Shown piece by piece: positions 180 to 18,201 of a stretch of DNA of 19,315 nt (the stretch's first letter is position 1; each line of letters starts with the position of its first letter). The DNA comes from a virus. Both the position numbers and the translations under genes were made by a program. The stretch covers positions 1-19,315 of IMG/VR virus record IMGVR_UViG_3300045988_139350; one strand, given 5' to 3'. A model generated the notes under the pieces. That model ran no database searches. It had not been told where the DNA came from and saw nothing but the letters and a program-made list of their open reading frames with translations.

Positions 180-208
180 TTGCATTTTCTTTCCAAATGT
201 TATATAAT
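180..208 (+). promoter_or_regulatory. Early promoter P1 (sigma-A type), TTGCAT-17 nt-TATAAT
   Basis: TTGCAT at 180..185, 17-nt spacer, TATAAT at 203..208. The downstream TATAATTAAATCATGGAAAGGGAA is nearly identical to the sequence at P2 (3457..3480). Confidence 0.7.
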
Positions 209-3361: not shown

Positions 3362-3367
3362 TAAGTG

Positions 3368-3397: not shown

Positions 3398-3421
3398 GTC
3401 GAACAAAACTTTAAAATATTT

Positions 3422-3450
3422 GTTTACTAACTATTGCAAAAATCGTTTAA
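3422..3450 (+). promoter_or_regulatory. ECF-type promoter-like motif GTTTAC-N16-CGTTTAA superimposed on P2
   Basis: GTTTAC at 3422..3427, 16-nt spacer, CGT at 3444..3446. It has the same architecture as three minus-strand sites ahead of late gene blocks. The homologous P1 region lacks both elements (GTACAA ... CTTTCC). Confidence 0.45.
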
Positions 3451-3462
3451 ATGCTGTATAAT
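3434..3462 (+). promoter_or_regulatory. Early promoter P2 (sigma-A type), TTGCAA-17 nt-TATAAT
   Basis: TTGCAA at 3434..3439, 17-nt spacer, TATAAT at 3457..3462, followed by TAAATCATAGAAAAGGAA as at P1. It sits between a terminator and the next operon. Confidence 0.7.
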
Positions 3463-3509
3463 TAAATCATAGAAAAGGAACAAAATATTAAATAAAAGGA
3501 GAATGAAAA

Positions 3510-4086: not shown

Positions 4087-4091
4087 TAATA

Positions 4092-4114
4092 AGGGAGTGA
4101 ACAATTCGCTCCCT
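4092..4114 (+). other. Stable hairpin without a U-tract upstream of the terminal protein gene
   Basis: AGGGAGTG (4092..4099), loop aacaatt, CGCTCCCT (4107..4114): 8 bp including one G-U pair. It is followed by aatacatataat, not a T-run. Confidence 0.5.
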
Positions 4115-4156
4115 AATACATATAATATAAATATATGAATAATGGGAGGGTATAAC

Positions 4157-4954
4157 ATGAATGCAAAAAGGCAATTATCAGGATTAAAAAGAGTTAATTG
4201 GGAAAAGAAGTCAACTAAACAAAAGGTAAAATATTTAGTTAATAAGTTACAAGTATTAGGTTATAAAATTCCAACTTATTTAAAAAATGGACAACTTAGT
4301 GATAGGCAATTAAAATCACAAATTAATAAAATTGAACGTGGGTTACAATCACAAATCAAAAAAGACAATTCTAGTAATAATAAAAAACAATTACCAATTG
4401 AAACAAGACTTAACAGGTATATAAAAAGATATAATAAACAAGTTGAATCAACTATTAACGGATTAAAAGCTATGGGACTATCAGAGCAACAAATTGATTA
4501 TTTAACTGGTAAAGATGTATTTTTTCCATCTAGGAGGAATAAAAGTTTTAGGATTGATGGTGTTGCATTAAAGAAAATTGGTGAACTAAATATATCTGAT
4601 GATGAAAGAAAATTAGCAATGTTAAATAAATTGAAGAATGATTATAAGAAGATAACACTTCAAGCAGTTTATGACAAATTAAATGATGATACTATGCAGA
4701 ATAAATGGTTTGCTGATTTTATGAGTTTAGATTTTGTTCAAAACATGGAAAGTTATCAAAGACAGGCTATATGGAAACAATGGCACACACTTTCACCACT
4801 GCAAAAAGAATTATTTATAAAAGGGGAACTTAATAATTTAAGAGATAAATATTTTGATATTGGTGAAGGTGAAATGGATAAAGCTTCTGAAAATTCTTAT
4901 GCGAGAATTGACAGGACTATTAATGAATATAGACAATTAGATAGTTTTAAATAG
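4157..4954 (+). CDS. Terminal protein candidate (265 aa from ATG 4157; the track uses ATG 4142)
   Basis: GGGAGG at 4144..4149 lies 7 nt before ATG 4157, so the track start sits in front of that RBS. The gene is immediately upstream of the protein-primed PolB, as gene 3 is in phi29. The size is close to phi29 TP (266 aa) and the N-terminal half is basic. The C-terminal INEYRQLDSFK resembles the phi29 TP end (..YLEQYRRGDFDLSLKGF, from memory). Confidence 0.65.
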   Translation: MNAKRQLSGLKRVNWEKKSTKQKVKYLVNKLQVLGYKIPTYLKNGQLSDRQLKSQINKIERGLQSQIKKDNSSNNKKQLPIETRLNRYIKRYNKQVESTINGLKAMGLSEQQIDYLTGKDVFFPSRRNKSFRIDGVALKKIGELNISDDERKLAMLNKLKNDYKKITLQAVYDKLNDDTMQNKWFADFMSLDFVQNMESYQRQAIWKQWHTLSPLQKELFIKGELNNLRDKYFDIGEGEMDKASENSYARIDRTINEYRQLDSFK

Positions 4955-4967
4955 GGAGGGTTAATAA

Positions 4968-7097
4968 ATGGATTTAAATGAGAGGTTAAAAAATATAACA
5001 GAGAATTTAGATAATTATTATTCTTATAGGTGTATTCCAAATTATGCTGAAACACAAAATTTTGCATTTGATATTGAAGCATGTTATTTAAAAGAAAAGA
5101 ATGAAATGTTGACTTATTCTATAGCATTAATGTCATGCGATAATAATACAGATATTTGTTATCATTATAAATCTGTTGATAAGTTTATGAATGATTTACT
5201 ATCTATTAAAAAGAAAACAATTAATTTATTTGCTCATAATGCATTATATGATATCAAGCCTTTTATATTATGGTTTACTGAACAAGATAATGCTAATCAA
5301 AGATTTGATGCATATTATGAAAAAGAATGTTACGATTTTTATAATAAGAAAAAAGAGAAATTAAAATTTACAGCTAAAAATAAATCAAAGTTAAAATCAT
5401 TTGAATACAACTTAATAATGAAAGATGGTGTTTTTTATAAGTTAACTTTACAAGGTGATGATGTAACTATAAATTTTTATGATACTTTCAAAATTGCTCC
5501 ATTTAGTTTACAAAAATGTTGTAGTGATTTCCTTGATTTATGTTTACCAAAAGATGGATTAGATTATGAAAAAGAAAGAAGTATTGATGATGATTTAACA
5601 ACAGAAGAATTAAGTTATATTTATAATGATGTGTTTGGGTTAAGTTATTTAGTAAAAATGTTAAAAATTGACGGACTTGATATATACGGAAAACATGTTG
5701 TGTATACTAAATTAACAAATAGTGGTCAATCATTAGAGGACTACAAAGAAACAGTTCTTGAAGATTATACTTTAAAACAAAATATGTTTAAAAATCAAGA
5801 TTTATTTGACTATGTAGATAATGGGTTAATGCGAAGTAAATTTTTTCAAACTAATAGTCCTGCGTTAAAGAAACAAATAATGTTTGAATGTTTATTCCCA
5901 AAACAAAGTTATTTTACTGACGCATGGCAAAGACATTCTTATTATGGTGGATTAAGTACAGTATGTTTTGAAAATGTAGAAAAATTTACAAAATGTAAAA
6001 ATCATAATGGTATAGTTTTAGATGTTAATTCATTATATCCTTATATAATGAGCGATAGATTATTACCATATGGTCAAGCAAACTATAAGGAAATTCCGTG
6101 GTGCAAAATGAATGAAAGTTATAAGAAATGTTTTCCACTTTATATTCAAGAAATTACTATTTATGATTTTGAAGTAAAAGAAAATAAGATGGCATTCTTA
6201 CAAGTTAAGGACAATCCAAATTTTAATGGTAGAGAAATTTTAAAGAATAATATAAAAGATGGTGAAAAGGTAACATTAACTTTTAGATTATGCAATCCAT
6301 TACTTGAATTATTATTTGAATGTTATAATGTTTACTCTTATGAACTTGGTGGTCATATGGCATTTACTGGTAGTCATGATTTATTTAAAAATTATATTGA
6401 TTTTTGGAGCGAAGTAAAAAAGAATAGTACAGGAGCAAATAGGGCAATTGCAAAACTTAGACAAAATGGGTTATATGGTAAATTTGGTATGAGTGGCTCA
6501 AATGAAATTACAGAGTTTGAAAATAAAGACGGTATATTTACAATTAATCATTTACATGATGAATATGTTTCAGATAATGTTTACTTACCTATGGCGACCT
6601 TTATAACTTCATATGCTAAACAGTATCTAGTACAAGCTATTAATGCGAATTACGACAGATTTTTATATTGTGATACTGATAGTTTACATTTATACGGAAC
6701 ACTTGAAGAAGTTAAAGGTGTGAACATTGGTGCAAAAATATATGGTTACTGGGATAATGAGTTGTGTTTTGAAGATTTTAAATATATTGGTAGCAAACGT
6801 TATGCAGAAAAGAATGCAGAAACTCATAAATGGGAAATTAAATGTTGTGGGCTAACTGATAGCATTATGAAACAAGTTGATGATATTAATGTATTTGATA
6901 ACTGCCCACATTCAAGTAAGGAATTAAAAAAGATCAAATTATACACAAAAGAAAATGATGTATATTATTATTACGACGAAGAATGTACAAAGAAAATAGT
7001 AGGATTAATTAAATCTAAGAAATCAAAGATTATAAAAGGTGGTACACTTATACAAGAGCAACCTTATAAAATTTCAAATAGTTATTATTTATTTTAG
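4968..7097 (+). CDS. Protein-primed family-B DNA polymerase (709 aa)
   Basis: Exo I FAFDIEA. Exo II LFAHNALYDIKPF. Exo III YIYNDVFGL. Motif A VLDVNSLYPYIM. Motif B KLRQNGLYGKFG. Motif C LYCDTDSLHL. GGGAGGG RBS. Confidence 0.95.
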   Translation: MDLNERLKNITENLDNYYSYRCIPNYAETQNFAFDIEACYLKEKNEMLTYSIALMSCDNNTDICYHYKSVDKFMNDLLSIKKKTINLFAHNALYDIKPFILWFTEQDNANQRFDAYYEKECYDFYNKKKEKLKFTAKNKSKLKSFEYNLIMKDGVFYKLTLQGDDVTINFYDTFKIAPFSLQKCCSDFLDLCLPKDGLDYEKERSIDDDLTTEELSYIYNDVFGLSYLVKMLKIDGLDIYGKHVVYTKLTNSGQSLEDYKETVLEDYTLKQNMFKNQDLFDYVDNGLMRSKFFQTNSPALKKQIMFECLFPKQSYFTDAWQRHSYYGGLSTVCFENVEKFTKCKNHNGIVLDVNSLYPYIMSDRLLPYGQANYKEIPWCKMNESYKKCFPLYIQEITIYDFEVKENKMAFLQVKDNPNFNGREILKNNIKDGEKVTLTFRLCNPLLELLFECYNVYSYELGGHMAFTGSHDLFKNYIDFWSEVKKNSTGANRAIAKLRQNGLYGKFGMSGSNEITEFENKDGIFTINHLHDEYVSDNVYLPMATFITSYAKQYLVQAINANYDRFLYCDTDSLHLYGTLEEVKGVNIGAKIYGYWDNELCFEDFKYIGSKRYAEKNAETHKWEIKCCGLTDSIMKQVDDINVFDNCPHSSKELKKIKLYTKENDVYYYYDEECTKKIVGLIKSKKSKIIKGGTLIQEQPYKISNSYYLF

Positions 7098-7111
7098 GGG
7101 GTAAGGGATTT

Positions 7112-7675
7112 ATGAAATATGAAGATTATATTAATCAATATGGTGATAGATATTTAAGGGGTATGACTTATAAATATTATAATAGTATTTTAGTAAAATA
7201 TCATGATAGAGTAGAGTTTGAAGACGTGCTTCAAATATGTGAAGCAAAAGTCGCATTTGCTATAAATGAATATAATAAAGATATTGCCGGGCTAAACACA
7301 TTCATAGCAAAAGTAATAAAAAATGGAGTTTATGATGTTTTAAAAGTTGAAAGAAGAGAAAAAAGAAAAGTCTATGATAACAGAGTATTTTTAGATAAAG
7401 AAGTAGTTGAAAATGAAAGTAATAATGAATTGAGTTTATACAATGTCATTCAATCCGAAGATGAATACGAAGATATAAATGAAATAATTGATAAAGTTTG
7501 CGAATTTATTAAAAACGAAAGACATAGAGAATATTTTAAAATGTATTGTCAAGGATATACAATTGAAGAAATAAGTAATAAATTCGGAGTAAAATACAAT
7601 GGAACAAAAACAATTCTTTCAAGGATAAGAAAGAGATTAAGAGAACACGAAAAAGAAATAAGAGAAATAATATAA
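7112..7675 (+). CDS. ECF-like (group 4/5) sigma-70 family factor (187 aa)
   Basis: Region-2-like FEDVLQICEAKVAFAINEYNKD...LNTFIAKVIKNGVYDVLKVERREKRK. Region-4 HTH-like REYFKMYCQGYTIEEISNKFGVKYNGTKTILSRIRKRLRE. The size and two-domain layout are typical of ECF/TcdR-like sigmas. Confidence 0.75.
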   Translation: MKYEDYINQYGDRYLRGMTYKYYNSILVKYHDRVEFEDVLQICEAKVAFAINEYNKDIAGLNTFIAKVIKNGVYDVLKVERREKRKVYDNRVFLDKEVVENESNNELSLYNVIQSEDEYEDINEIIDKVCEFIKNERHREYFKMYCQGYTIEEISNKFGVKYNGTKTILSRIRKRLREHEKEIREII

Positions 7676-7680
7676 TAATT

Positions 7681-7706
7681 GGAGGGTTTTACCCTCCTTT
7701 TATTTT
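7681..7706 (+). terminator. Rho-independent terminator at the convergence point of the early and late arms
   Basis: GGAGGG(T) at 7681..7687 and (A)CCCTCC at 7691..7697, followed by TTTTATTTT. The T-run overlaps the stop codon of the convergent ATPase gene. No comparable U-run exists on the minus strand. Confidence 0.75.
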
Positions 7707-8707
7707 ACACCTAAACTTCTAAATATATCATACATCAAATGTTTAATATTTTGGTCTGTAAATCTTACTCTTCCAACTTGGAAATATGAAATTAATTGTT
7801 TCAACATATTTAGATTAATTCCACTTGCATTTAATAATGTATTCGGATTATGGTCTTCACAACTTAATACATATTCATTACAAGTTTTCATATATTTATC
7901 ATCACAATAGAATATACCAGTTTTATAGTCAAGCCATATCATTGCTCTTTCACCATTATAAACTATACTCATAACAGGCGAAGTATTTCGTTTCGGTCTT
8001 TTCTCAATGAATACTTCACTGTCTCTAAGAGAATTGTTATATATTGAATAGTCTGCATACTTTGTTCCTTTAATAAGCTTTCCGAATTTTGTTTCAAGTT
8101 TTTCGTTGATGAAAACTGTATCTGTACACATTTCAACAACTAATTCACCATCACGAGCAATAGTAAATCTTTCTGTTTTCTTAGGTGTTACATCAAAATA
8201 AGTAAAGTATGGATTTACTATAGAAACATTATTAGCTAATAAATAAGCTTTAACATTATTTCTTTTTCTTGCTATTGTTTCGTATAAATCTAAAAATACA
8301 TCAACTTCATTTGTTAGGTATCTTATACAACCTTTGTCAACAATGAACTCATCAAAAATGATGGTAGTTACAAAAGGGTAATCAACTGATTTTAATTTTT
8401 GAGAAGTTGAGAGAGCAATTGCATAACCTGCGATTTTTCCATCTATATAAAATGTTTTTCCCTTAACTTCAAACGTATGAGTTTTAAACTTTTTCCTTAA
8501 GTCGGGAGAATCAAAAAATTTGTGAATGTCATTAAGTTCCGTTTTATATCTTCTTACATAAACAAATTGTTCACCTTTCTTTAAAAACTTTTTTATTACA
8601 TTACATTTAGCACCAAAAGTTTTCCCAAATCCTCTATTAGTCAATATGAAATTTAAAGTAGCATTATAGCTATTAATTCTATCATAATTATACCAAGCCA
8701 CGAACAA
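7700..8707 (-). CDS. DNA encapsidation ATPase (phi29 gp16-like), 335 aa, non-ATG start (TTG 8707 or GTG 8701)
   Basis: Walker A LTNRGFGKTFGAK and Walker B TTIIFDEF. The N-terminus SYNATLNFILTNRGFGKTF parallels phi29 gp16 YDRILNFVIGARGIGKSY (from memory). It is the last gene of the late arm, as in phi29. RBS GGAAAGGAAG. Confidence 0.85.
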   Translation of the reverse strand: MFVAWYNYDRINSYNATLNFILTNRGFGKTFGAKCNVIKKFLKKGEQFVYVRRYKTELNDIHKFFDSPDLRKKFKTHTFEVKGKTFYIDGKIAGYAIALSTSQKLKSVDYPFVTTIIFDEFIVDKGCIRYLTNEVDVFLDLYETIARKRNNVKAYLLANNVSIVNPYFTYFDVTPKKTERFTIARDGELVVEMCTDTVFINEKLETKFGKLIKGTKYADYSIYNNSLRDSEVFIEKRPKRNTSPVMSIVYNGERAMIWLDYKTGIFYCDDKYMKTCNEYVLSCEDHNPNTLLNASGINLNMLKQLISYFQVGRVRFTDQNIKHLMYDIFRSLGVK

Positions 8708-8732
8708 AACACTTCCTTTCCATTTATTATAA

Positions 8733-8759
8733 AGCCCTTACATCTACTTTGTAAGGGCT
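8733..8759 (-). terminator. 10-bp perfect hairpin between the endolysin and ATPase genes (attenuator or terminator-like)
   Basis: On the minus strand: AGCCCTTACA, loop aagtaga, TGTAAGGGCT, then TTTATAATAAAT (interrupted U-tract that also contains a TATAAT-like box). Confidence 0.5.
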
Positions 8760-8766
8760 AATTATT

Positions 8767-9435
8767 TTATACAATTATACTATCAATACCTAATTTCTTT
8801 AATTTTTGTTGCATTTCTTCTGCATTTGATTTAATTTTATATGCTCCAACTTGTACACGATAAATCTTATCATTTGTATTTTGACTTGGTACACTAACTG
8901 GTCTAGACATGTATACCTTACCAGTAAGCGCTTCTATAATTGCTGAACAAATACTATCAAAGTTTTCTCTATATTTTTGTACGTCGTATGAAGAATCACA
9001 AAAACATACTTCAATCAATAGCATAGGCTTGTTTGTATTTCTTAACACATAAAGTCCTTTTCTTTCCTTTCCTCCTCTATCTTTTAGTCCACTTGCTTTA
9101 CTAATCGCAGATGAAACTTGACTTGCTAGTTGTGATTGAGAATAATAACAAACTTCTGTTCCCATACTATTTGATGTATGCTGATAGGCATTAAAGTGAA
9201 TTGATATATCTATACCATCTTTAAATTTATTATGCCAGTTTGCAATATTTGCTAAATTTTGTGAACTTGAACTTGATGTGTCATGATACTTGTACACTTC
9301 AATTCCCATAGCTTTACACATTTCGTAAATTTTATCAACTACTTTTCTTGCTTCTGTTACTTCATTTATTATATCACTTGCACCTTGACAGTTAATACTA
9401 TGCCCACTACTTATATTAATTTGTGAATAAGTCAT
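8767..9435 (-). CDS. Endolysin: N-acetylmuramoyl-L-alanine amidase (Amidase_3-like) with C-terminal SPOR-like domain (222 aa)
   Basis: Amidase_3-type blocks SSGHS..., DISIHFNAY, GTEVCYY, NKPMLLIEVCF. The C-terminal YRVQVGAYKIKSNAEEMQQKLKKLGIDSIIV is a typical SPOR signature. GGGAGG RBS. Confidence 0.85.
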   Translation of the reverse strand: MTYSQINISSGHSINCQGASDIINEVTEARKVVDKIYEMCKAMGIEVYKYHDTSSSSSQNLANIANWHNKFKDGIDISIHFNAYQHTSNSMGTEVCYYSQSQLASQVSSAISKASGLKDRGGKERKGLYVLRNTNKPMLLIEVCFCDSSYDVQKYRENFDSICSAIIEALTGKVYMSRPVSVPSQNTNDKIYRVQVGAYKIKSNAEEMQQKLKKLGIDSIIV

Positions 9436-9493
9436 TTTTAATTCCTCCCTATTTTGGAAAATAAAATAATAATTAATAAAAATATAACTTTGA

Positions 9494-9505
9494 TTGATAT
9501 ATCAA
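9494..9505. repeat. 12-bp perfect palindrome TTGATATATCAA between the holin candidate and the endolysin
   Basis: Read directly. It lies in the 88-bp untranslated gap 9436..9523. Confidence 0.6.
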
Positions 9506-9523
9506 CATACATTTCCCAGTACA

Positions 9524-9697
9524 TTATTTTTTACCCTCCACTTTATCCTCAATATTTTCTAATCTTACCATGATACCCTTAAGAGTAACGTTTAACTCAT
9601 TTAATGTCTTTGTAAAATTTGAATTATTCCAAAACAATACAACACAACAAGCTATAGGGAATCCAACATTTGTAATTAAATTTGTTATATCTTCCAT
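9524..9697 (-). CDS. YvrJ-like small membrane protein, holin candidate (57 aa), not in the ORF track
   Basis: AGGAGG overlaps the upstream stop, with ATG at 9697. It reads MEDITNLITNVGFPIACCVVLFWNNSNFTKTLNELNVTLKGIMVRLENIEDKVEGKK then TAA at 9524..9526. There is one hydrophobic segment. The ..NVGFPIA..(hydrophobic)..L.EL pattern matches my memory of the YvrJ family. It is positioned directly upstream of the endolysin. Confidence 0.65.
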   Translation of the reverse strand: MEDITNLITNVGFPIACCVVLFWNNSNFTKTLNELNVTLKGIMVRLENIEDKVEGKK

Positions 9698-9706
9698 AGT
9701 AACCTC

Positions 9707-9955
9707 CTATTCATATAATTCAGTTGATAAATTTCCCTCATCATCAACTAATATTTTAAATTGTTTATTATTTGGTGATATTAAAACTATTTTATTATAT
9801 GGTAGCATTAAATTGATTGTATTATTTAAGTTTTCGCACGTGTCCTGGCATTGATATATTAAATTGTATAATTCAGCAAGAACTTCTTGCCATGTATTTT
9901 TATCCATATTATAAAGATTTTGTATTGATGAATAAATATTCTCTTTACTTGCCAT
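9707..9955 (-). CDS. Hypothetical late protein (82 aa)
   Basis: RBS context AAAAGGAAGTGAATaataATGGCA is nearly identical to that of the 14999..16558 gene. No TM segment and no motif recognised. Confidence 0.6.
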   Translation of the reverse strand: MASKENIYSSIQNLYNMDKNTWQEVLAELYNLIYQCQDTCENLNNTINLMLPYNKIVLISPNNKQFKILVDDEGNLSTELYE

Positions 9956-10036
9956 TATTATTCACTTCCTTTTTAAAATTAGGAAAGTTGATGTTGCCTC
10001 CTTACTCATTTATGAACAATATTTATAAATTGTGAG

Positions 10037-12178
10037 TTATAAATCTGTAATACCAATATTATTTTTTACATTATAAGTAACATTTTCATTTGTTATAACA
10101 CCTTGAATTGATGTATCAGTTAATCCACACTTATCGATATTTCCATTAACAACTAAATTTAATTTACTTGTTACGTTAACACCATTAAATTTTATACCGG
10201 CTCTATTTTGACTATCTCTTAAAACTAAATTGTTATTATTTATAAAAATATCTGTTACACCTTTATTTAAATATTTTATTTCTATTGCTCCGTTAACGTC
10301 TGCGTATAAAATATTATTATTATAATTAAAAGTGTTTATTTGATTATCATCAACGTTATTGTCTAATCTAAAACCTAAATATGATATAGAATTATTTAAA
10401 TTTACAATTCTGTTGTCTAGTACAATAATTTTATTATTTATATTTATACCATCTTTATGAGTTATTTTAGAATTATTATCAATTGTCAATTCATCTAAAT
10501 TTTTAATTTGTAACCAATCACAAATTGTAAAAATGGTGTTACTTAGTGATAATGTATTCTTAATGTCATATCCTCTTTTAGTTGCTTTGTCCACCCAATC
10601 TGTTGAAGGTACTGTTAATACACAATTATCACATTTTAATTGTAACAAAGGATTTAAATAAAAAACATCGCAATCTTTAAATGCTATATTTTTTGAGAAT
10701 CTATTATAACGGGTATTGTGTGATGTAAAAATAGAATTTACAAATGTTACATTTGTTACAGCATTACCAAAAGCTTCACCACTTCCGAAATTATATGATA
10801 CTCTGTTGTAATATGCTTCATTATTTGTATTTGTTCCGTTCCAATCTTCTATTATAATATCGTGTTCATAATTTCCATGAAATTGTATTTCATTTGATTT
10901 ATTGTCATAACTTCTTACATTTGTATAATGACAATAGCCACCGCTCGTAAAGTCTAATGTATGTCTACTTTCATTACCTACTATATAGTTTCCACTAACG
11001 TTGTTTGAAGATATATTTTGAATGACATATCCCTCACCACCACCATATTTTCTTGTTTTTAAATTTTCAATATTATTATATTCACAGTTATGAGCGTACT
11101 CGCTATGAATAGTAGAGAATATACCATTTTCTAATTTTGCACCATTTACTTTAATGTTGTCTCCGCAAAAAATTGCAATACCGCAAAAACATTTTGTTTG
11201 ATAATCTGATTGGTCTAAAGTGCTATCAGGTAAAACATCTTTTCCATTAAATCCGTTTATAGTTATATTTTGTTTAGCATCAACTTTTTGAATAAAGCAT
11301 GTTGTAAAATCTGCATTTAATAAATGTTCAAAATTCCATCTATCTTTAGGTAATATATAATCTAAATAAATTTTTGTTTCTTCTTTTTTTATTATTTTAC
11401 TCATTACAGAAACAGATGGAGTCAATTTTGATGCACTATATATTCCAGTATCCACTCTAACTATTACATAATTACCAACTTTTAAATCGTTGATAACACT
11501 GATATTTACATACCCTTTATCTAAAGTTAATCCGTTGATAGATAAATCAATTGGATAAGTATCTTTTAATTCACCTCTAATTGTAAAAACGCCATGATTA
11601 TTTCTACCATCATGCGGTTTTGTTGTATCATAATCCATTAAAATTAAAGCATCATTTAAATTCAAAATTCTATTACTAGGGACATTAATTGGTTGTGTTA
11701 TTCTATAAACTTTTTCTTGTTTTAGTTCAAGAATTTTACCCGTCTCCAATGCTTGAATAAATGATTGAGTATCATCTGTAATTCCATCACCTTTTCCACC
11801 AAACATTTCTGGAGTTACATATATCGCCTTATTATCCAAATGTTCATTAAATTCTAGTTTAAAATTATCAACTTTATCATTTATATTTTTAAGTAAAGTT
11901 TGATTGATTAAAGCCTCTAATGTACCATTGTTTATTAATTCTAACAACCTTTTTGCAACTTGTTCCTCCAGTCCTTGCCCTAATAAATATTGTAATTTTT
12001 CCTTCATAGCTTTATCACTATTATAACATCTATCGTCTATATACTTTAAATGTTCAATTATAATATTTATTTTTTGAGCAAATTTACACAATAATTCGTC
12101 TGTTGTTAAACTATCAAAATCATAAACTTGCGTAATTAATTTATCAAGTCCAATATTTCTTATCTTATCAATACTCAT
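10037..12178 (-). CDS. Tail appendage / tailspike with right-handed beta-helix (pectate-lyase-3-like) domain (713 aa from ATG 12178; the track starts at 12211)
   Basis: AGGAGG lies 9 nt before ATG 12178 (MSIDKIRNIG...). The track N-terminus would read through that RBS. FGGKGDGITDDTQSFIQALETGK is the classic start of phage tailspike/gp12-type beta-helix domains. The gene sits where phi29 gene 12 sits. Confidence 0.8.
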   Translation of the reverse strand: MSIDKIRNIGLDKLITQVYDFDSLTTDELLCKFAQKINIIIEHLKYIDDRCYNSDKAMKEKLQYLLGQGLEEQVAKRLLELINNGTLEALINQTLLKNINDKVDNFKLEFNEHLDNKAIYVTPEMFGGKGDGITDDTQSFIQALETGKILELKQEKVYRITQPINVPSNRILNLNDALILMDYDTTKPHDGRNNHGVFTIRGELKDTYPIDLSINGLTLDKGYVNISVINDLKVGNYVIVRVDTGIYSASKLTPSVSVMSKIIKKEETKIYLDYILPKDRWNFEHLLNADFTTCFIQKVDAKQNITINGFNGKDVLPDSTLDQSDYQTKCFCGIAIFCGDNIKVNGAKLENGIFSTIHSEYAHNCEYNNIENLKTRKYGGGEGYVIQNISSNNVSGNYIVGNESRHTLDFTSGGYCHYTNVRSYDNKSNEIQFHGNYEHDIIIEDWNGTNTNNEAYYNRVSYNFGSGEAFGNAVTNVTFVNSIFTSHNTRYNRFSKNIAFKDCDVFYLNPLLQLKCDNCVLTVPSTDWVDKATKRGYDIKNTLSLSNTIFTICDWLQIKNLDELTIDNNSKITHKDGININNKIIVLDNRIVNLNNSISYLGFRLDNNVDDNQINTFNYNNNILYADVNGAIEIKYLNKGVTDIFINNNNLVLRDSQNRAGIKFNGVNVTSKLNLVVNGNIDKCGLTDTSIQGVITNENVTYNVKNNIGITDL

Positions 12179-12200
12179 GCACATGCACCTCCTAATTATT

Positions 12201-12229
12201 ACTAACGACAAAAAAGGACTTGAGTAAAC
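12201..12229 (-). promoter_or_regulatory. ECF-type promoter-like motif GTTTAC-N16-CGTTAGT ahead of the appendage gene
   Basis: On the minus strand: GTTTAC (12229..12224), spacer tcaagtccttttttgt (16 nt), CGTTAGT (12207..12201). The -35-like hexamer lies in the loop and 3' arm of the preceding hairpin. The leader to the RBS would be very short. Confidence 0.4.
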
Positions 12230-12234
12230 AAGCC
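12208..12234 (-). terminator. Intrinsic terminator/attenuator after the lower collar gene
   Basis: On the minus strand: GGCTTG, loop tttact, CAAGTCC (6 bp with one bulged U), then TTTTTTG. It starts immediately after the TAG stop at 12235..12237. Confidence 0.6.
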
Positions 12235-12861
12235 CTAATAAATTAACATAAATAAATCATTACATTCTTCAAAAATCATTTGGTCAATATTTATTAGTAC
12301 ACTTCTCCACTTTTCTAATAATTCAGCTGATGAAGTAACACCAATATTACCTTGGGAAACTAGAGAATAAGTTTCTGTTGAATTATTTTCTGCACTATTT
12401 GTTCCATTACTATTCATTGTTGAGTTGTCTGTATTTTTACTTGCACTAGTCATAAATTGGTCAAGGTCATCAATTTTATTTTGTGGAGTATCATTATTAA
12501 TATTTAAACTAGTGTCATTTGTTGTACTTGTTGAACTTTGATTTACTGAACTATTCCCTGTTAACTCTCTTGTATATTGTTCTTTCAAATCTTTATTTAA
12601 CATAAAATCAATGTCATTACATCGTAATTCTGTTTGATAGAGTTGCTTAAAATATGGATAAATATCATTTAATTTAATTTGCAAAGCTTTTTTAAATCTA
12701 GCAATAGGAGTTAATCCGATTTCATAAAAATAAAAATGGTCAATAAATTTTTTCTCAAAAGCTGATTTTAATTCATTGTCGTACAAATTATAATTAAAAT
12801 CAAATAATGTAAAATCCACACTATTAACTATTTGATTTAATTCTAACGTATATTTACTCAT
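12235..12861 (-). CDS. Lower collar protein (phi29 gp11-like), 208 aa from ATG 12861 (the track starts at 12906)
   Basis: GGAGGGAGA RBS precedes ATG 12861, which overlaps the connector stop by 8 nt. FYFYEIGLTPIARFKKALQIKLNDIYPYFKQLYQTE matches the EIG.ET...F...L....I.PYYN.LY block I recall for picovirus lower collar proteins. It follows the connector, as in phi29. The C-terminal half is N/S/T-rich low complexity. Confidence 0.7.
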   Translation of the reverse strand: MSKYTLELNQIVNSVDFTLFDFNYNLYDNELKSAFEKKFIDHFYFYEIGLTPIARFKKALQIKLNDIYPYFKQLYQTELRCNDIDFMLNKDLKEQYTRELTGNSSVNQSSTSTTNDTSLNINNDTPQNKIDDLDQFMTSASKNTDNSTMNSNGTNSAENNSTETYSLVSQGNIGVTSSAELLEKWRSVLINIDQMIFEECNDLFMLIY

Positions 12862-13732
12862 CAACTTCTCCCTCCTCTTCTCCCTCTTGGTCATAACTAC
12901 TTTCAAAATTATTATTTTTACTTACTTTAACATTTAGTCCAAACTTTTTATTAAGTTCTTCACATGCAACTTGTCTATTAGCAAACATAATATCTACATT
13001 TCTGTTTATATAATCATTATTTGAATTAACCTCATCTACAAGCAACCTCTCTTTTTTCTCAAAAGAATTATTTAATCCAAAAAATGTCAAAATTTCTCTT
13101 TCAAGTTCATACTTATATTGATTAAGTTTATCCGCAACATATGGAGTTGTAGTTAATATTGCATTTGAATTTTCTATATTTAAATCCTTATTACCAAATA
13201 TAACTGGCTCTAAATTATCCACTTCTTCGAATAGTTTTTGCATAGTTTGTTTATTGTTAGGGGTTGTTTCAATAAACCAAGGGAACTTTTGATGATTGAT
13301 GTTTGCTCTAATACATCTTTCAACCTCCATCATCTTTGTTGCATAATCTATTACATAATCTTCTGTTCCAAATCCTAAATCATTATTAAGAATAAGCTGA
13401 GATTTATCTTTCCAGTTTTTATTTAAATAGGGTATAGTTTTTATATAATTATAACCACTTGTAATTACTTTTGTATGCTCAAAATTTACATTCATTTCTT
13501 CGGCGAATTCACAAGGCACACATATTAGCCCTAAGTTTTCATCATCAACAAATATCGCTTTTCCAAAATGAAACAAAGATTTTTCTATATATCTTGGTTT
13601 AATTGTTTCGGGTAGATTTTCCCATGTGAACATATTTAAAGCTAATAGTTTATATTTATTATACAATAAATTAAAATGTTGATTTCTGCTTTCTTGCATA
13701 AATGCTTGTTTTTGTTTATGTGTCATTCCCAT
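12854..13732 (-). CDS. Head-tail connector / upper collar (portal, phi29 gp10-like), 292 aa from ATG 13732 (the track starts at 13810)
   Basis: GGAGGTG lies 7 nt before ATG 13732, right after the upstream stop (13734..13736). [28 protein letters not shown] parallels phi29 gp10 [45 protein letters not shown] parallels [28 protein letters not shown] parallels INELYGLNVKV (phi29 sequences from memory). Confidence 0.9.
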   Translation of the reverse strand: [292 protein letters not shown]

Positions 13733-13733
13733 T

Positions 13734-14984
13734 TTAATACACCTCCACATTATTTTCGTATTCGAACATTGTTGTCCCTTCATTGTCCATGTGCCATACT
13801 GTAATGCCATTATTGAAAATTGATTTTATTTCGTCTAAGTATTCATGTGGTATTCTTGCACCCACAATATTACATACATTTGTTTTTACGTAATTATAAT
13901 GCTTTCTACATGTTAAATTTATATAATCATATCCGTTAACTTTATAACCATATCGTTTAAAATATTCTTGAGCCTTTGCCATCTGTTGGACATTACATCT
14001 ATATTCTAATAAATCTACTCTTTGATTGCTATTAATTAAATTAAAAAGTGTGTCATTCCCTGCGGTTTTAATACTATTAGGAGTTGTTAGCATATCATTA
14101 ACCTTTGCATTCTTCATGCTTATAATATTGTGTTCATTTAATTGTGAATTTTCATTTGCTTGGGTATTAGCTAATTGATTTTGCATGTAACCAAAAGCTA
14201 GGTTACTTGCATTACTAGCTAAACCACCAAAATTTAAGCTTAATAAATTACCAATAGCACTTAATGCATTGGTTGCAGTATTTTGTGCAAAATTCAAATT
14301 ATTTGATTGTGTATTATGCTTTAATGTCAAATCATTTTCTAATAAAGCATTAGTAACTGATTGATTAAATGAACTTGCGGAAGTTGCTAAAAATTGACTA
14401 TATGCTGATGAAGTTACTGGTAACATTAATGCTGTACTATTACACATCCCCTCTAAGTTTCCGTCATCATCGTATTTATAATTTTCTACATAAATATTAT
14501 ATTTACTTTCTGAACTAATAGCAGTAGTTTTTACCATAACCTTAAATTCATTACTATCATTATCTTCAATTCTTTCGGGTTTAATTAACATTGGATTAGA
14601 AGAATAATCAGTAATTAAAAAATATCTAAAAGGATAACATAATACCCTAGGCTCAAAATCATAACTATAGTCAGATTTTTTAGGGTATATTTTCTGTGTA
14701 TCACCTAATTGATAATTAATTTTATCGAATGAACATATTCTTTTTACATATGGGATTTGGCCATCAGGACTACCATAACGTGCAGTATCGAATATTGCTT
14801 TTCTTACATCTGATATATCAGCTTCATCTATAAAAGGATTATAAGTTACACTTTCAATAGTATTTACAAAACCCAAATAAGTTGCTTCAGTTGCACCATT
14901 TTTTGGTACGTAATAATAATATAATCCAACCGCAACATTATTTATTATTGTACTATCAGGCTCGTTTTTTGAAGTTGTTGCCAT
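13734..14984 (-). CDS. Tail knob protein, C-terminal two-thirds of a phi29 gp9-type protein (416 aa)
   Basis: The C-terminus FKRYGYKVNGYDYINLTCRKHYNYVKTNVCNIVG...IKSIFNNGITVWHMDN parallels phi29 gp9 [34 protein letters not shown]...IRTIFDNGITLWHTDN (from memory). CYPFRYFLITDYSSNPMLIKPE parallels MYPYCVTEITDFKGNHMNLKTE. AGGAGG RBS. Confidence 0.8.
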   Translation of the reverse strand: MATTSKNEPDSTIINNVAVGLYYYYVPKNGATEATYLGFVNTIESVTYNPFIDEADISDVRKAIFDTARYGSPDGQIPYVKRICSFDKINYQLGDTQKIYPKKSDYSYDFEPRVLCYPFRYFLITDYSSNPMLIKPERIEDNDSNEFKVMVKTTAISSESKYNIYVENYKYDDDGNLEGMCNSTALMLPVTSSAYSQFLATSASSFNQSVTNALLENDLTLKHNTQSNNLNFAQNTATNALSAIGNLLSLNFGGLASNASNLAFGYMQNQLANTQANENSQLNEHNIISMKNAKVNDMLTTPNSIKTAGNDTLFNLINSNQRVDLLEYRCNVQQMAKAQEYFKRYGYKVNGYDYINLTCRKHYNYVKTNVCNIVGARIPHEYLDEIKSIFNNGITVWHMDNEGTTMFEYENNVEVY

Positions 14985-14998
14985 TAAAATTACCTCCT

Positions 14999-16558
14999 TT
15001 AATCTCCTAATAAATTTCTATATCGATAATCACTATTTGGAGTTCTGTCATTTTCCATTATATCTGTACCAGTTTGTTTTGCTTCTATTACATGAATTGT
15101 ACCGTCATCATTAAATCTATAAAACATAACAACATGTCCATTATCAGAATTACCTCTAGTGAATACTAAATCACCCGGTTTACATTCTTCAAGTGTTATT
15201 TCTTTACCCTCTTTAATTTGTGTGTATGTTGTTCTTGAAATTGAAATTCCGTTGTCATTATATGCCCATTGACATAAACCCGAACAATCTGTTCCGCTAC
15301 TGTTACCAAGTGGAGGATAATTTCCACCATATACATAAGGCAAACCAATTAACTTTAACGCACTATTTATAATATTTTGCCTTATTTCACTTGTTGGAGT
15401 GTCATACTTATTGAACATATCAGGAATGAATCCTTTTCCGTCATTATCTGTAATAGTTCCACCATTTAGATTAGGTATTGGTTTATAATTATAATCACCG
15501 TTTAAAAATACATTTGCTTCAGCTTTTCTTCTATTCCTTAATCCCTCTTCGAATTGAGTACCACTCATTATTACTGTTTCTTTCCACACTTCAGCTATAC
15601 TTTCGGGACTATCACCATTAATATACTTTGTAAAAATTGTTTTAGAAGATAGTGAGCCAGTATTATAATAAAAACTAACAAAAGCATCAAAATGTTGTTG
15701 CTTCATTTTATTCATATCAAAACCATAATTAACAAAAGTGTCATAAACATAAGTTGAATAATTTTTCTTTAAACTTTCGGCTAATACATTACTTGCCTGT
15801 TCCTCTGTACACTCAGGAGCGAGTTGATTATAATGTTCAGGATCGTATTCACTAGTAGTACCGTAACCTATTGTGTATGTCCCATCACCTAAATTGTATG
15901 GAGTAGAACTAAATCCCTCGCCCTGTTTAATAAACCAAAAACCATTTGCTGATACTAGTTTATCTTTATATAAATTACCTTGATTTGTTGAACTGCCACC
16001 ACTTCCACTACCGCCACTGTATTTTATAGAAAGCTTATCAGAACTAGTAACAATATATCCGCCTTTATTTTCATAATCATAAAGTGGAGTTCTGTTTTGT
16101 AAGATATACTCACCTATTTCAAAATCTTCATTTTCTAACATATTATAATCTGCAACTGTTCCATCTTGATTCCAACGCCATAAATGTTGTCTGTCTATAT
16201 GAGATTTAATTTTTGTAAATTTCATTTCAAACCAATACGTTTGGATAACATCTAATTTCAGAGTAAGTTCTGTTACATTTTCTGATAAATAAGTTTTATT
16301 TAAAATAAAAAAGTATTCCATTTTACCATCAACAGAATTTTGAAATGCACAATAATTACATAATGCAAGTTCGTCAATATATTTTGGAACTTTTAATGTA
16401 CGTTCTTTTCTTAAATATGTGCAATTATCAATTTTAAACTGTAAATAATTCATAAAGAAATTAAATTGATTAGTTACATTATTGAAGTTTACTGTATGAT
16501 TGTGCCCAACATCTAAAAACCAACAGTTAAACAAATAAATTGTACTTTGTCTTGCCAT
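14999..16558 (-). CDS. Tail-associated tri-domain protein: gp9-like tail-knob N-domain + GH24 phage lysozyme + NlpC/P60 endopeptidase (519 aa)
   Basis: The N-domain LKLDVIQTYWFEMKFTKIKSHIDRQHLWRWNQDGT parallels phi29 gp9 [33 protein letters not shown] (from memory). Linker SGGSGSGGSS. Lysozyme block FIKQGEGFSSTPYNLGDGTYTIGYGTT...FDAFVSFYYNTG...GLRNRRKAE. NlpC/P60 block GLPYVYGG...GTDCSGLCQWAY...GHVVMF. Confidence 0.85.
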   Translation of the reverse strand: MARQSTIYLFNCWFLDVGHNHTVNFNNVTNQFNFFMNYLQFKIDNCTYLRKERTLKVPKYIDELALCNYCAFQNSVDGKMEYFFILNKTYLSENVTELTLKLDVIQTYWFEMKFTKIKSHIDRQHLWRWNQDGTVADYNMLENEDFEIGEYILQNRTPLYDYENKGGYIVTSSDKLSIKYSGGSGSGGSSTNQGNLYKDKLVSANGFWFIKQGEGFSSTPYNLGDGTYTIGYGTTSEYDPEHYNQLAPECTEEQASNVLAESLKKNYSTYVYDTFVNYGFDMNKMKQQHFDAFVSFYYNTGSLSSKTIFTKYINGDSPESIAEVWKETVIMSGTQFEEGLRNRRKAEANVFLNGDYNYKPIPNLNGGTITDNDGKGFIPDMFNKYDTPTSEIRQNIINSALKLIGLPYVYGGNYPPLGNSSGTDCSGLCQWAYNDNGISISRTTYTQIKEGKEITLEECKPGDLVFTRGNSDNGHVVMFYRFNDDGTIHVIEAKQTGTDIMENDRTPNSDYRYRNLLGD

Positions 16559-16583
16559 AAAAATTCACTTCCTTTCTATTTTC

Positions 16584-16612
16584 ATATACGACAAAAAAGG
16601 AGGGTTGTATAC
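16584..16612 (-). promoter_or_regulatory. ECF-type promoter-like motif GTATAC-N16-CGTATAT ahead of the tail gene block
   Basis: On the minus strand: GTATAC (16612..16607), spacer aaccctccttttttgt (16 nt), CGTATAT (16590..16584). It sits about 25 nt upstream of the RBS of the 519-aa gene. The -35-like hexamer lies in the loop of the preceding terminator. Confidence 0.5.
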
Positions 16613-16617
16613 CTCCT
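16592..16617 (-). terminator. Rho-independent terminator after the major capsid gene
   Basis: On the minus strand: AGGAGG (16617..16612), loop tatacaac, CCTCCT (16603..16598), then TTTTTG. It begins 5 nt after the capsid stop. Confidence 0.75.
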
Positions 16618-16622
16618 ATAAA

Positions 16623-17666
16623 TTATGCAGTTACTATTCTACAAACATTTGCAAAATTACAAGCAGACATTAAACCCCATCTATTGAAGAATATATTTGT
16701 ATAAATTCCTTGAGGATTTCTGAATGTTTCAGAACTATTTAATGTTTCATATATTTGTATTGCATCTTTATCACAAATAATAGCCAAACAATCAGTATCT
16801 TCTGCGTATGTTGCTTCTTCACCTGTTCCAGTTCTCTTTGTAAATTGAGGTACCGGTAATACATGAAGTGGAACTTCTGCCTTGTCTATATTGAATGCTT
16901 GTGCTAATAATTCAACATCAATGTTTGCCATCATATCGGGATCTAAGAATACAACTAAGTCTTGAGGCCTTGAGAATGTCATTACCCCTTGTCCATTATG
17001 TTTGTTGTTTAAGAATCCCATTTTGATAACTTGAGATTTTATAGTTTTAACTATTACTTTTGCTTTTTCTTCTTCTGTCATTGCACTATATGCAGTTTTA
17101 TCAATAGTAGCTTTGCCACCTTTTAGTTCAGGTAATGCATGTAATACCATTTCTTGCATATCATACTCGATAGAAGTTAGTGGAGCCTGTAATATTCTTC
17201 CTGTCATTGAAGAAAGTCCATTTTCTGCTCTGAACGCACCTTTTAATTCCTCATCAGTAATTGTTGTCTTATATTGATGACGGAAATTTTCTGAATAATA
17301 CTCAACCTTTACATTTGGATTTTCTCTTGATAATAAATCACTTGCTAAAGTAGTTGTATTAGTTTCGTGTGTTCTTTGTTTACCCTTAACAATATCAACA
17401 AAGGTAGATTCTATTGACTTACCATATGGTAACATACCTCTGTTAAATAACTTATATGGATTTTCATATGCTTTGCTAAAAAATAATTGTTTTGCAACTT
17501 GATTTGTTAAAACAGAAATAAATTCATTCTTTGCAGTTGGATAAGTTGAAATAATTTCTTCTATATTTCCAATATTGTCTTGAGTAGCTACTGGTACTCT
17601 GTCTTTATATTCTTGACTTGCTAAATCACTAACCATACTTGCAAACGTAACGTTATCTAATGCCAT
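16623..17666 (-). CDS. Major capsid protein (phi29 gp8-like, no Ig-like C-terminal domain), 347 aa
   Basis: [13 protein letters not shown] parallels phi29 gp8 [37 protein letters not shown] parallels [53 protein letters not shown] parallels [29 protein letters not shown] (phi29 from memory). It follows the scaffold gene. Confidence 0.9.
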   Translation of the reverse strand: [347 protein letters not shown]

Positions 17667-17681
17667 AATATAATCACTCTC

Positions 17682-17954
17682 CTATAATACTTTATTTAAA
17701 AACTCTTGATAACTCATTTTAGGTTGAGCATCTTGAGGTTTAGACTTATTTTGTTCGGGACTAGATGAAACTTGTTCAAATAATTCATAATTTTTTATTT
17801 TTAACTTCTTAACTTGCTCATCATATGATTTAATTGTTTCATCCTTTTCTGATAAAACTGATTTTTGACTTTCCAATTGTTGCTTTAAATCTGCTATTTC
17901 TTTTTCAGCTTTTAATTGATAGTCGTTAGCTTGTTCCAAATTTTCAAATGCCAT
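17682..17954 (-). CDS. Scaffolding protein (phi29 gp7-like), 90 aa
   Basis: Small, highly charged, heptad-rich (KAEKEIADLKQQLESQKSVLSEKDETIKSYDEQVKKLKIKNYELFEQV). It lies directly upstream of the capsid gene. AGGAGG RBS. Confidence 0.7.
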   Translation of the reverse strand: MAFENLEQANDYQLKAEKEIADLKQQLESQKSVLSEKDETIKSYDEQVKKLKIKNYELFEQVSSSPEQNKSKPQDAQPKMSYQEFLNKVL

Positions 17955-17990
17955 TATTATTTCCTCCTTTTAATTTATTAATTCTTAATA

Positions 17991-18118
17991 GAATACCCAA
18001 ATATGCACCTTGTAGTGCGTTGGGTACTCAATAAAAATGCAATTTATAAATGTTAATAACGGAAATACCACTTTCGACCTTACAACTATCGGCTCTTCAC
18101 CGTGGTGCATAGTTGTAA
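17991..18118 (-). promoter_or_regulatory. GC-enriched structured leader / candidate ncRNA: two 39-nt hairpins upstream of the scaffold gene
   Basis: Minus strand. Hairpin 1 (18118..18080): UUACAACUAU pairs with AUAGUUGUAA (10 bp), internal loop GCACCA, upper stem CGGU/GCCG, loop GAAGA. Hairpin 2 (18029..17991): GAGUACCCAA pairs with UUGGGUAUUC (10 bp, one G-U), upper stem GCAC/GUGC, loop UACAAG. An alternative 8-bp pairing exists between UAUGCACC (18111..18104) and GGUGCAUA (18009..18002). Confidence 0.5.
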
Positions 18119-18153
18119 CATTATTATTCAACGTATTATAAACTACAATTATT

Positions 18154-18182
18154 ATATACGATTGAAAAAATAAAAGGTAGAC
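18154..18182 (-). promoter_or_regulatory. ECF-type promoter-like motif GTCTAC-N16-CGTATAT, candidate main late promoter
   Basis: On the minus strand: GTCTAC (18182..18177), spacer cttttattttttcaat (16 nt), CGTATAT (18160..18154). It sits between the right-end operon terminator and the late genes. The -35-like hexamer spans the loop and 3' arm of that terminator. Confidence 0.5.
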
Positions 18183-18197
18183 AATAAAGCCTACCTT
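18164..18197 (-). terminator. Rho-independent terminator ending the right-end (SSB) operon
   Basis: On the minus strand: AAGGTAG (18197..18191), loop gctttattgt, CTACCTT (18180..18174), then TTATTTTTT. It starts 4 nt after the stop of the 93-aa gene. Confidence 0.75.
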
Positions 18198-18201
18198 AAT
18201 A

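Follow-up and report, generated by a model that had tools for sequence, protein, structure and literature searches.

A minimal sigma factor gene behind the DNA polymerase of an uncultured phi29-like phage, and its proposed role in late transcription

The IMG/VR virus record IMGVR_UViG_3300045988_139350, which was analysed here over its whole length of 19,315 bp (hereafter the window), is the complete linear genome of a phi29-like phage, and the gene directly after its type-B DNA polymerase (PolB) encodes a protein of the sigma-70 family. We propose, at a probability of about 0.6, that this protein is a minimal factor made of a sigma-2 and a sigma-4 domain, by which the phage redirects the core RNA polymerase (RNAP) of its host and switches on its late genes. 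The sigma-family identity, the domain layout and the position of the gene in its operon are solid.

A sigma-70-family gene at the end of the replication operon

An earlier note, made from the letters of the window alone, had described the open reading frame (ORF) in question as a gene for a sigma factor, and its coordinates (7112-7675) and its length of 187 residues are exactly as given there. The product matches TIGR02937 (sigma70-ECF) with 62 bits against a cut-off of 42.9 (E=5e-17), where residues 19-178 correspond to positions 14-163 of the 165 in the profile; furthermore, it scores 27.1 bits with Pfam PF07638 (Sigma70_ECF; gathering score, 21.1) and E=8e-12 with PHROG 1740, “RNA polymerase sigma factor”. 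In a word-indexed search, 53 homologues with identities of 81-95% were obtained, often on contigs of ~18-20 kb, and a median dN/dS of 0.13 (77 pairs from 13 genomes) indicates purifying selection. The ORF is a real sigma-70-family gene under selection; indeed, the protein is already auto-labelled “RNA polymerase sigma factor” in IMG and in third-party annotation records (DAR17508.1 and DAX00799.1). An A+T-rich sequence easily yields long ORFs, but beyond this nothing speaks for a chance ORF or an annotation artefact, an explanation that we consider refuted by the match to a curated family, the low dN/dS, the number of homologues, and the conserved synteny.

The gene had also been placed last in the replication operon, and it is the final gene of the operon that contains PolB and the putative terminal protein, with a terminator after it. 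Between the stop codon of PolB (7095-7097) and the start of the sigma gene lie 14 nt, into which the ribosome-binding site of the latter is fitted (Table 1). As this leaves no room for a separate promoter or terminator, the sigma gene is considered to be co-transcribed with PolB. The hairpin that follows, between the sigma gene on the plus strand and the ATPase gene on the minus strand, is where the early and late transcription units end and the two arms of the genome converge.

As to the domains, only sigma-2 and sigma-4 were found, and neither Sigma70_r3 nor a region-1 model gave a match at E<=10 in Pfam; the description of the product as region 2 and region 4 with nothing else is thus borne out, and the helix-turn-helix string quoted in its support corresponds to residues 148-178. 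A search with hidden Markov models, which had been suggested as a check, came out in two parts: namely, TIGR02937 and PF07638 exceeded their cut-offs, but the separate Pfam models stayed below their gathering scores (Sigma70_r2, 18.6 bits versus 24; Sigma70_r4, 17.7 bits; Sigma70_r4_2, 22.2 bits). The sub-threshold matches lie at the expected places for regions 2 and 4, with Sigma70_r4_2 and Sigma70_r4 both covering residues 136-178 (E of 1e-4 and 2.5e-3, respectively). The sigma-2 domain aligns with distant sigma factors, and by our own reading of that alignment it would hold a region 2.2-like FEDVLQ and a region 2.3/2.4-like stretch, GLNTFIAKVIKNGVYDVLK; D38 is nearly invariant among the distant sigma homologues. 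In the sigma-4 domain, K161-K174 is invariant in 19 homologues, and the acidic linker between the two domains is the most variable stretch of the alignment (A1).

Structure prediction, another check that had been suggested for the protein, gave the two-domain fold of a sigma factor. The AlphaFold (AF2) model, with an overall pLDDT of 84, consists of two helical domains and a low-confidence linker; its input alignment comprised 61 diverse sequences, and with 19 near-identical sequences the pLDDT was only 45. When the model was compared with the PDB by Foldseek, the top matches were all sigma factors at a probability of 1.0 each, including a Bacillus subtilis SigH model (9a4r), Mycobacterium tuberculosis ECF factors (9m9e and 6koo), Staphylococcus aureus SigB and Escherichia coli sigma-E. 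The TM-scores were low, as expected from two domains that sit on a flexible linker. Among predicted viral structures, furthermore, the named top matches were, with few exceptions, phage sigma factors or had been annotated as RNA polymerase subunits.

The family was also followed by sequence. Against 1.84 billion representative proteins, a profile made from 19 close homologues alone hit its own cluster, then a few proteins of 182-208 residues at 26-33% identity (P0057-P0061), and then ~100 further proteins, mostly of 150-260 residues; those of the latter with Pfam annotation carry Sigma70_r2 and Sigma70_r4 domains. In a translated search (tblastn) of 50,697 phage records, no match to the window protein was obtained at E<=1e-3, and two more distant family members hit only unrelated Listeria and faecal contigs or nothing. 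A close-family profile, when searched against the sequences of the PDB, found no sigma factor and only spurious matches to eS17 and ClpS. That search became informative with a deeper profile (A3), a result that is partly circular because A3 already contains bona fide sigma factors.

It could be argued from the sub-threshold score of region 2 and from the failure of the close-family profile in the PDB that the protein is no longer a sigma factor, but a sigma-derived regulator that binds DNA through the helix-turn-helix of region 4 and activates or represses (a functional analogue of the phi29 activator p4), or else an anti-sigma-like decoy that stays off core RNAP. Regulators with sigma-4 alone do exist, and the protein has a weak match of 15.4 bits to a “positive control sigma-like factor” (PRK06930). 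The match to TIGR02937 is nonetheless full-length, the sigma-2 domain is highly conserved and has the highest confidence in the model (pLDDT 91-97), and Foldseek aligns ~180 columns to whole sigma factors, so that we regard the loss of sigma function as improbable.

Linkage to the polymerase and place among sigma factors

The gene order of the window is common to ten relatives in IMG/VR and to two metagenome contigs, and members of this clade turn up in many public metagenome assemblies. A second clade in IMG/VR (L014-L021), whose capsid protein is 61-64% identical, has a collinear genome with the order early genes, terminal protein, PolB, sigma-like ORF, terminator, structured RNA, scaffold, and capsid/late genes; because this layout is fully collinear, its late module is inverted relative to that of the window. 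The sigma-like ORF of this clade (230-240 residues) follows PolB either directly or past one small variable ORF, and it has E values of 1e-14 to 1e-16 against the profile built here and 32.6 bits with TIGR02937, below the cut-off. A short operon on the opposite strand stands at the far end of these genomes. In a third clade, represented by P0057 (33% identical to the window protein), the sigma gene is again the last on the polymerase strand and converges with a gene for a Gp16-type ATPase. Sigma genes thus adjoin the polymerase in three divergent uncultured clades. Searches for related loci gave one short contig for P0057 and none for P0058.

A tandem arrangement was also noticed on two short metagenomic contigs (L024 and L025), where the gene for P0058, a protein 27% identical to that of the window, has another sigma-like ORF, of 181 residues, 10 nt behind it (583-1140 and 1150-1695 in L024; profile E=2e-21 for the second). 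These contigs begin with the apparent 3' end of another gene.

The linkage does not appear to be general to phi29-like phages. In eight other genomes, namely those of susfortuna, phiQ, LPCPA6, Hungatella phage CH17P1, Clostridium innocuum phage CI644P6, the Bacillus phages BeachBum and PumA1, and an unannotated faecal contig, no sigma-like ORF was found with three profiles and filters off (all ORFs, E>0.02). In BeachBum and PumA1, a p4-like “late transcriptional activator” is annotated. The other ORFs of the window, on the other hand, gave no PHROG match to p4 or any other transcription regulator.

Among cellular sigma factors, the protein lies between the ECF group and SigH. The earlier note had called its layout ECF/TcdR-like, of which the ECF part stands: sigma-2 and sigma-4 alone, without region 3, and a match to PF07638 are the general features of group 4 (ECF), and cellular ECF factors and SigH (Spo0H) share with it the two-domain form. 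Its structural neighbours are M. tuberculosis SigH/E/L, E. coli sigma-E, and B. subtilis SigH and SigW. No specific ECF or SigH equivalog or subfamily cut-off was reached in NCBIfam, the best score being 35.9 bits against 130. An anti-sigma partner is a typical, not universal, feature of ECF factors, and no co-transcribed anti-sigma gene is present here, where PolB lies upstream of the sigma gene and the terminator and the convergent ATPase gene follow it. The window protein differs from the cellular factors in lacking a cognate anti-sigma gene, in being encoded by a lytic phage, and in the -35-like box of its candidate promoters, described below. These are similar in form (xxxxAC-N16-CGTx) to the promoters of ECF factors, B. 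subtilis SigW reading TGAAAC-N16-CGTA; but the box ends in TAC instead of AAC, also in GTTTAC-N16-CGTT, the candidate site before the operon of the sigma gene itself.

Membership in the SigH family of Firmicutes is not indicated, given sub-equivalog scores and a phage-genome context. No SigH match for the window protein is among the 25 NCBIfam matches listed (of 30), and the relatives P0057 and P0058 score 29-46 bits with SigH models, the cut-offs of which are 208-414. SigH is the nearest cellular neighbour of the window protein, and the SPO1 middle-gene factor gp28 clusters with SigH, SigD and SigI in published trees (bioRxiv 10.1101/2021.11.12.468384).

The scores of the distant relatives with SigH models also bear on the idea that the factor acts mainly on the host, either by competing with sigma-A for core RNAP (shut-off) or by redirecting it to stationary-phase or sporulation genes, a role that has been put forward for sporulation-like sigma factors of phages. 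Phages of Firmicutes do carry host-like sigma factors that alter dormancy, and the locus around the bacterial homologue P0169 has a gene order that we take to be that of sigH. Models of SigF/G/E/K, in contrast, gave no match above noise, the family was found only on phage contigs of ~19 kb, and an enriched motif is present on the DNA of the phage itself; a dispensable gene is, moreover, unlikely to be kept beside the polymerase in three divergent clades with genomes of 19 kb. We therefore regard a mainly host-directed role as unlikely.

The TcdR part of the claim found no support. TcdR, UviA, BotR and TetR (group 5) are likewise small sigma-70-family proteins of clostridia in which regions 2 and 4 are present, but their context differs, as the window has no toxin or bacteriocin genes nearby. 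No TcdR-type family occurs among the 12 Pfam matches or the 25 listed NCBIfam matches (of 30), although these libraries may hold no dedicated TcdR model; as judged from sequence, a TcdR-like membership appears unsupported, the nearest relatives being SigH-like and ECF. Promoters of the TcdR group have boxes of the TTTACA / GTTATA type, which the candidate promoters described below lack, and neither these nor the SigH consensus (AGGAwwt / GAAT) was found in a search by eye.

Candidate promoters and the proposed early-to-late switch

Each block of genes on the late strand has a terminator before it, the T-tract of which is followed by (G/A)TCGT (three sites), and in all three of these late terminator sites a GTnTAC box lies exactly 16 nt upstream of CGT. 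The position of the box in the hairpin differs from site to site (3' arm, loop, or stem-loop junction); before the structured RNA, scaffold and major capsid genes, for example, the -35-like box is the 3' arm of the terminator at 18197-18174. The pattern GTnTAC-N16-CGTw has four sites in the window against 0.12 expected, and none of 200 dinucleotide-preserving shuffles reaches four. All four are intergenic and co-oriented with the genes downstream, and the fourth (3422-3447), which had not been seen beforehand, precedes the operon that ends with the sigma gene and overlaps a sigma-A-type promoter. The boxes are kept at the homologous sites of relatives; at the fourth site, GTTTAC and TCGTT are conserved in L001, L002 and L008, and flanks and spacer vary. 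Because the motif was derived post hoc, all bipartite patterns of the form “5 of 6 bases, N14-19, 3-mer” were enumerated in 1.57 kb of oriented intergenic DNA. Once the patterns that the terminal repeats give rise to are set aside, GTNTAC-16-CGT comes out on top; it scores 9.62 against a median of 5.5 and a 95th percentile of 6.9 in 200 Markov nulls.

We propose that the sigma-A holoenzyme of the host would transcribe the left early operons from two near-consensus promoters (Table 1), the first of which is without GTnTAC/CGT boxes. The sigma factor would be translated from the mRNA of the terminal protein and PolB and so accumulate along with the replication proteins; since its gene has no promoter of its own, it would be made together with the terminal protein and the polymerase. 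It would then bind host core RNAP and direct it to phage promoters poorly recognised by sigma-A, for which the three terminator-overlapping sites on the late strand are the best candidates, and the outcome would be the expression of the head, tail, lysis and packaging genes. The site at 3422-3447 would be one further target and provide positive feedback on the operon of the factor itself. Core binding, promoter specificity and the role in an early-to-late switch are what we infer. The first two draw indirect support from the enriched bipartite motif; for the switch, the conserved linkage to the polymerase, the lack of a detectable p4 and the candidate regulon motif make the inference a reasonable one.

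To the sub-threshold Pfam scores and the close-family PDB search mentioned above, several points on the side of the DNA can be added that weigh against this proposal. The motif was found post hoc, and the maximum of the 200 nulls (9.73) slightly exceeds its score, which corresponds to a family-wise p of ~0.005-0.01. It can also be read as a weak or poor sigma-A promoter, TnTACn-17-TATATA. A 13-nt block, CCTTTTTTGTCGT, is common to the late sites at 16612-16587 and at 12229-12204; these two may represent paralogous terminators and not promoters of independent origin. Furthermore, GTnnAC-N16-CGTw is absent from the loci of the second and third clades, whose sigma factors differ greatly, so that a validation of the motif across clades failed. 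Another element, GTAGTT-N15-(T/A)ATAAT at 18120-18146 (minus strand), immediately precedes the structured RNA; the window clade and the second clade (L014-L021) have both kept it despite very different sigma proteins, and it could be the real late promoter. It occurs, nonetheless, in a single copy on the late strand and hence cannot be a repeated late promoter; it may serve the RNA as a sigma-A promoter that stands in tandem with GTCTAC-N16-CGTA.

The same element bears on a rival view, in which the protein is a real sigma factor with a regulon narrower than the late module: it might cover just the structured (prohead RNA-like) RNA together with the head genes, or genes of a “middle” class, for instance the replication operon to which the factor itself belongs. 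The late genes would then use sigma-A with or without an unrecognised activator. One copy of the motif does precede the operon of the terminal protein, PolB and the sigma factor, a distinct conserved element stands before the RNA in two clades, and SPO1 gp28, which clusters near SigH, is a sigma factor for middle genes (bioRxiv 10.1101/2021.11.12.468384). Three of the four copies of the motif, on the other hand, precede blocks of late structural genes, and a genome of only ~30 genes shows no other recognisable regulator. A narrower regulon, accordingly, seems to us not very likely but deserves some weight next to the proposed late switch.

Some further repeats were noted in the intergenic DNA. 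The sequence TCGTATAT, with one mismatch allowed, was tried as a motif and rejected, as it is not enriched (19 matches against 25 expected). The heptamer TTTGTCG occurs in five copies against 1.2 expected (one of 200 shuffles reaches five), namely at 131-137 and 3395-3401 on the plus strand and at 12206-12212, 16589-16595 and 2313-2319 on the minus strand; four of them lie between genes in the direction of transcription, and three come straight after the T-tract of a terminator. Because its plus-strand copies (GTCGAA) have no GTnTAC at -16, the heptamer may serve a separate function, for example as part of a terminator or as a protein-binding site. The two early promoters share a 40-nt block (195-234 and 3449-3488, plus strand; 85% identity) that reaches ~25 nt past the -10 box (TATAATTAAATCAtrGAAArGGAA), which suggests a common operator or leader for early shut-off or tuning. 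Sigma-A-like promoters are also found at the right end, before the SSB gene, and a generic scan for sigma-70 promoters was uninformative at 26% G+C (170 matches against 157 expected). After the appendage gene, finally, an intergenic inverted repeat, ACAAT-TTATAAAT-ATTGT, is followed by TCATAAA (10016-10033, minus strand); it is conserved in the otherwise very divergent third clade (L023, ~8140-8165) and may be an operator or promoter for the block of small ORFs, holin and lysin.

Other features of the genome and comparison with known phages

The label “phi29-like”, which the earlier note had used, is correct in view of the gene content, the convergent arms and the terminal repeats of the window. 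The inverted terminal repeats are 149 nt long with 83% identity, and PolB, a Gp16-type ATPase, and collar, tail and head proteins were assigned by PHROG and Pfam; a linear genome of ~15-25 kb with terminal repeats, which encodes a protein-primed PolB, a Gp16-type packaging ATPase and connector, collar, tail-knob and capsid proteins of the phi29 type, is what characterises picoviruses of the Salasmaviridae / Guelinviridae type. PHROG matches among the ORFs of the window are phrog_1907, 2150, 2038, 5472, 16740 and 2006, and the Pfam matches of the relatives are PF03175, PF05894, PF05352, PF20934 and PF25622. PolB is ~30% identical to that of Guelinviridae phages of Clostridium perfringens, the nearest isolates. 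The putative terminal protein gave no match in the PHROG search; an ORF occupies the same position before PolB in the relatives. The late module has the order structured RNA, scaffold, major capsid, tail/peptidase, tail knob, upper collar, lower collar, appendage, small ORFs, holin, amidase and Gp16-type packaging ATPase (7700-8707). The coordinates are collected in Table 1.

Table 1. Coordinates of features in the window
Feature	Position	Strand	Basis or remark
Early arm	1-7675	+	small early ORFs, then terminal-protein position, PolB, sigma
Early sigma-A-type promoter TTGCAT-17-TATAAT	180..208	+	sequence, repeat D4; without GTnTAC/CGT boxes
Candidate promoter GTTTAC-N16-CGTT	3422..3447	+	pattern search; before operon ORF 3510-terminal protein-PolB-sigma
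Early sigma-A-type promoter TTGCAA-17-TATAAT	3434..3462	+	promoter scan, repeat D4
Putative terminal protein, 270 aa	4142..4954	+	synteny only: directly 5' of PolB as in phi29
Type-B (protein-primed) DNA polymerase	4968..7097	+	phrog_1907, 4e-93; PF03175 in relatives
Ribosome-binding site GGGGGTAAGGGA	7097..7108	+	sequence; overlaps PolB stop codon
Sigma factor gene, 187 aa + stop	7112..7675	+	ORF list, translation; ATG start, TAA stop
Sigma-2 domain, residues 1-84	7112..7363	+	AF2 helices 3-84, pLDDT 91-97
Flexible acidic linker, residues 85-120 (36 residues)	7364..7471	+	pLDDT 54-63
Sigma-4 domain, residues 121-187	7472..7672	+	AF2 helices 122-186, pLDDT 81-93
Helix-turn-helix of sigma-4, residues 148-178	7553-7645	+	Sigma70_r4_2 and r4 matches, residues 136-178
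Bidirectional intrinsic terminator, G+C-rich hairpin	7681..7697	.	terminator scan scores both strands
Late module, presumed regulon	7700..18201	-	PHROG and Pfam assignments
Candidate late promoter GTTTAC-N16-CGTT	12204..12229	-	overlaps post-lower-collar terminator; before appendage, holin, lysin, ATPase
Candidate late promoter GTATAC-N16-CGTA	16587..16612	-	overlaps post-capsid terminator; before tail genes
Candidate late promoter GTCTAC-N16-CGTA	18157..18182	-	before structured RNA, scaffold, major capsid
SSB gene	18483-18854	-	right end; then 93-aa ORF, terminator 18197-18174, ~245 nt non-coding

In the non-coding stretch 17955-18201, between the terminator and the scaffold gene, lies the conserved structured RNA (17991-18119, minus strand). 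RNAalifold with 16 distinct sequences from two clades predicts 21 pairs, of which 12 are backed by compensatory double changes, and a loop, GGUGAAGAGCC, that does not vary; the minimum free energy of the single sequence is -39.8 kcal/mol (z = -3.6). Rfam searches of the whole window and of the focused region found no prohead RNA (pRNA) or other credible family. According to a review of 2024, pRNA is known only from Bacillus phages (PMC11476376). As a Gp16-type packaging motor is present, the structured RNA could be a pRNA outside that group; alternatively, it could be a leader of the late operon.

The early ORFs include PAPS-reductase-like, DUF3310/nucleotide-kinase-like and MazG-like genes. 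The first of these (853-1812, plus strand; phrog_424, 1e-28) is an unusual auxiliary gene at such a genome size, and a PAPS-reductase-like gene also adjoins PolB in the C. perfringens phage phiQ. In the late module, the ORF at 10037-12211 (minus strand) has a mechanical start at TTG 12211, within the terminator/promoter region; its true start is likely ATG 12178 (or 12172) after a ribosome-binding site AGGAGG, giving MCMSIDK... or MSIDK....

The host is probably a low-G+C bacterium of the class Clostridia, as the genome has 26% G+C (24-32% along the window), the nearest isolates infect C. perfringens, and one copy was binned in a “Clostridiales” metagenome-assembled genome. The latter is an identical or near-identical contig of 19,023 bp deposited within a “Clostridiales bacterium” assembly (MFU2363432.1 and others), and it is probably a phage genome binned into a bacterial one. 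A megablast search of the whole window against the 50,697 phage records gave no match at the DNA level.

In phi29, the switch to late transcription is made by p4 and p6 acting on the sigma-A holoenzyme at the divergent A2c/A2b-A3 promoters (PMC11476376). The window shares with phi29 the genes for virion, replication and packaging, as well as left and right early operons and a late operon ended by terminators (PMC11476376), but no p4-like gene was detected in it and a sigma gene is present instead. Furthermore, its early and late modules are transcribed towards each other (in the second clade they are collinear) with a terminator between them, and a divergent switch region of the A2c/A3 kind is hence absent. 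The Bacillus relatives keep p4 and have no sigma factor, and in the Guelinviridae of C. perfringens neither is recognisable. The word “sigma” is absent from the 2024 review of phi29-like phages (PMC11476376), and we found no report in the literature searched that links Picovirinae, Salasmaviridae or phi29-like phages to a phage-encoded sigma factor.

The closest functional analogues are the timing factors of large lytic phages, namely SPO1 gp28 (middle) and gp34 (late) and T4 gp55 (late), which are also small and highly diverged members of the sigma-70 family made early by a lytic phage; a replacement of the host sigma factor is what we propose here as well. SPO1 and T4 are large myoviruses of ~130-170 kb, and their sigma factors have no detectable sequence similarity to the window protein. 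They work in cascades and with co-factors (gp33 in SPO1; gp33 and gp45 in T4), whereas the window has a single sigma factor in a protein-primed podovirus of 19 kb; T4 gp55, moreover, is without a sigma-4 domain, which the window protein has.

The claim is a modest one in that phage-encoded sigma factors are well known and public pipelines already label the protein as such, but none has been described in this phage lineage, in which phi29 is the reference case for gene timing by a minimal tailed phage, through the activator p4 and its action on the sigma-A holoenzyme. If our proposal is true, these would be the smallest genomes of tailed phages known with a sigma factor, and a factor of 187 residues with a short cognate promoter would be a compact orthogonal expression part for clostridia and other low-G+C Firmicutes. 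A fuller version, which we hold only tentatively, is that a widespread and probably Clostridia-infecting lineage may have replaced the p4/p6 switch by a self-encoded minimal sigma factor, which would read ECF-like promoters embedded in terminators and feed back on its own operon. If the factor does drive the late genes, a phage of 19 kb can afford a strategy of sigma replacement that has so far been tied to phages several-fold larger or more, such as SPO1 and T4, and the temporal switch of these phages would be an exchangeable module, with p4 in the Bacillus phages and a sigma factor in three uncultured clades.

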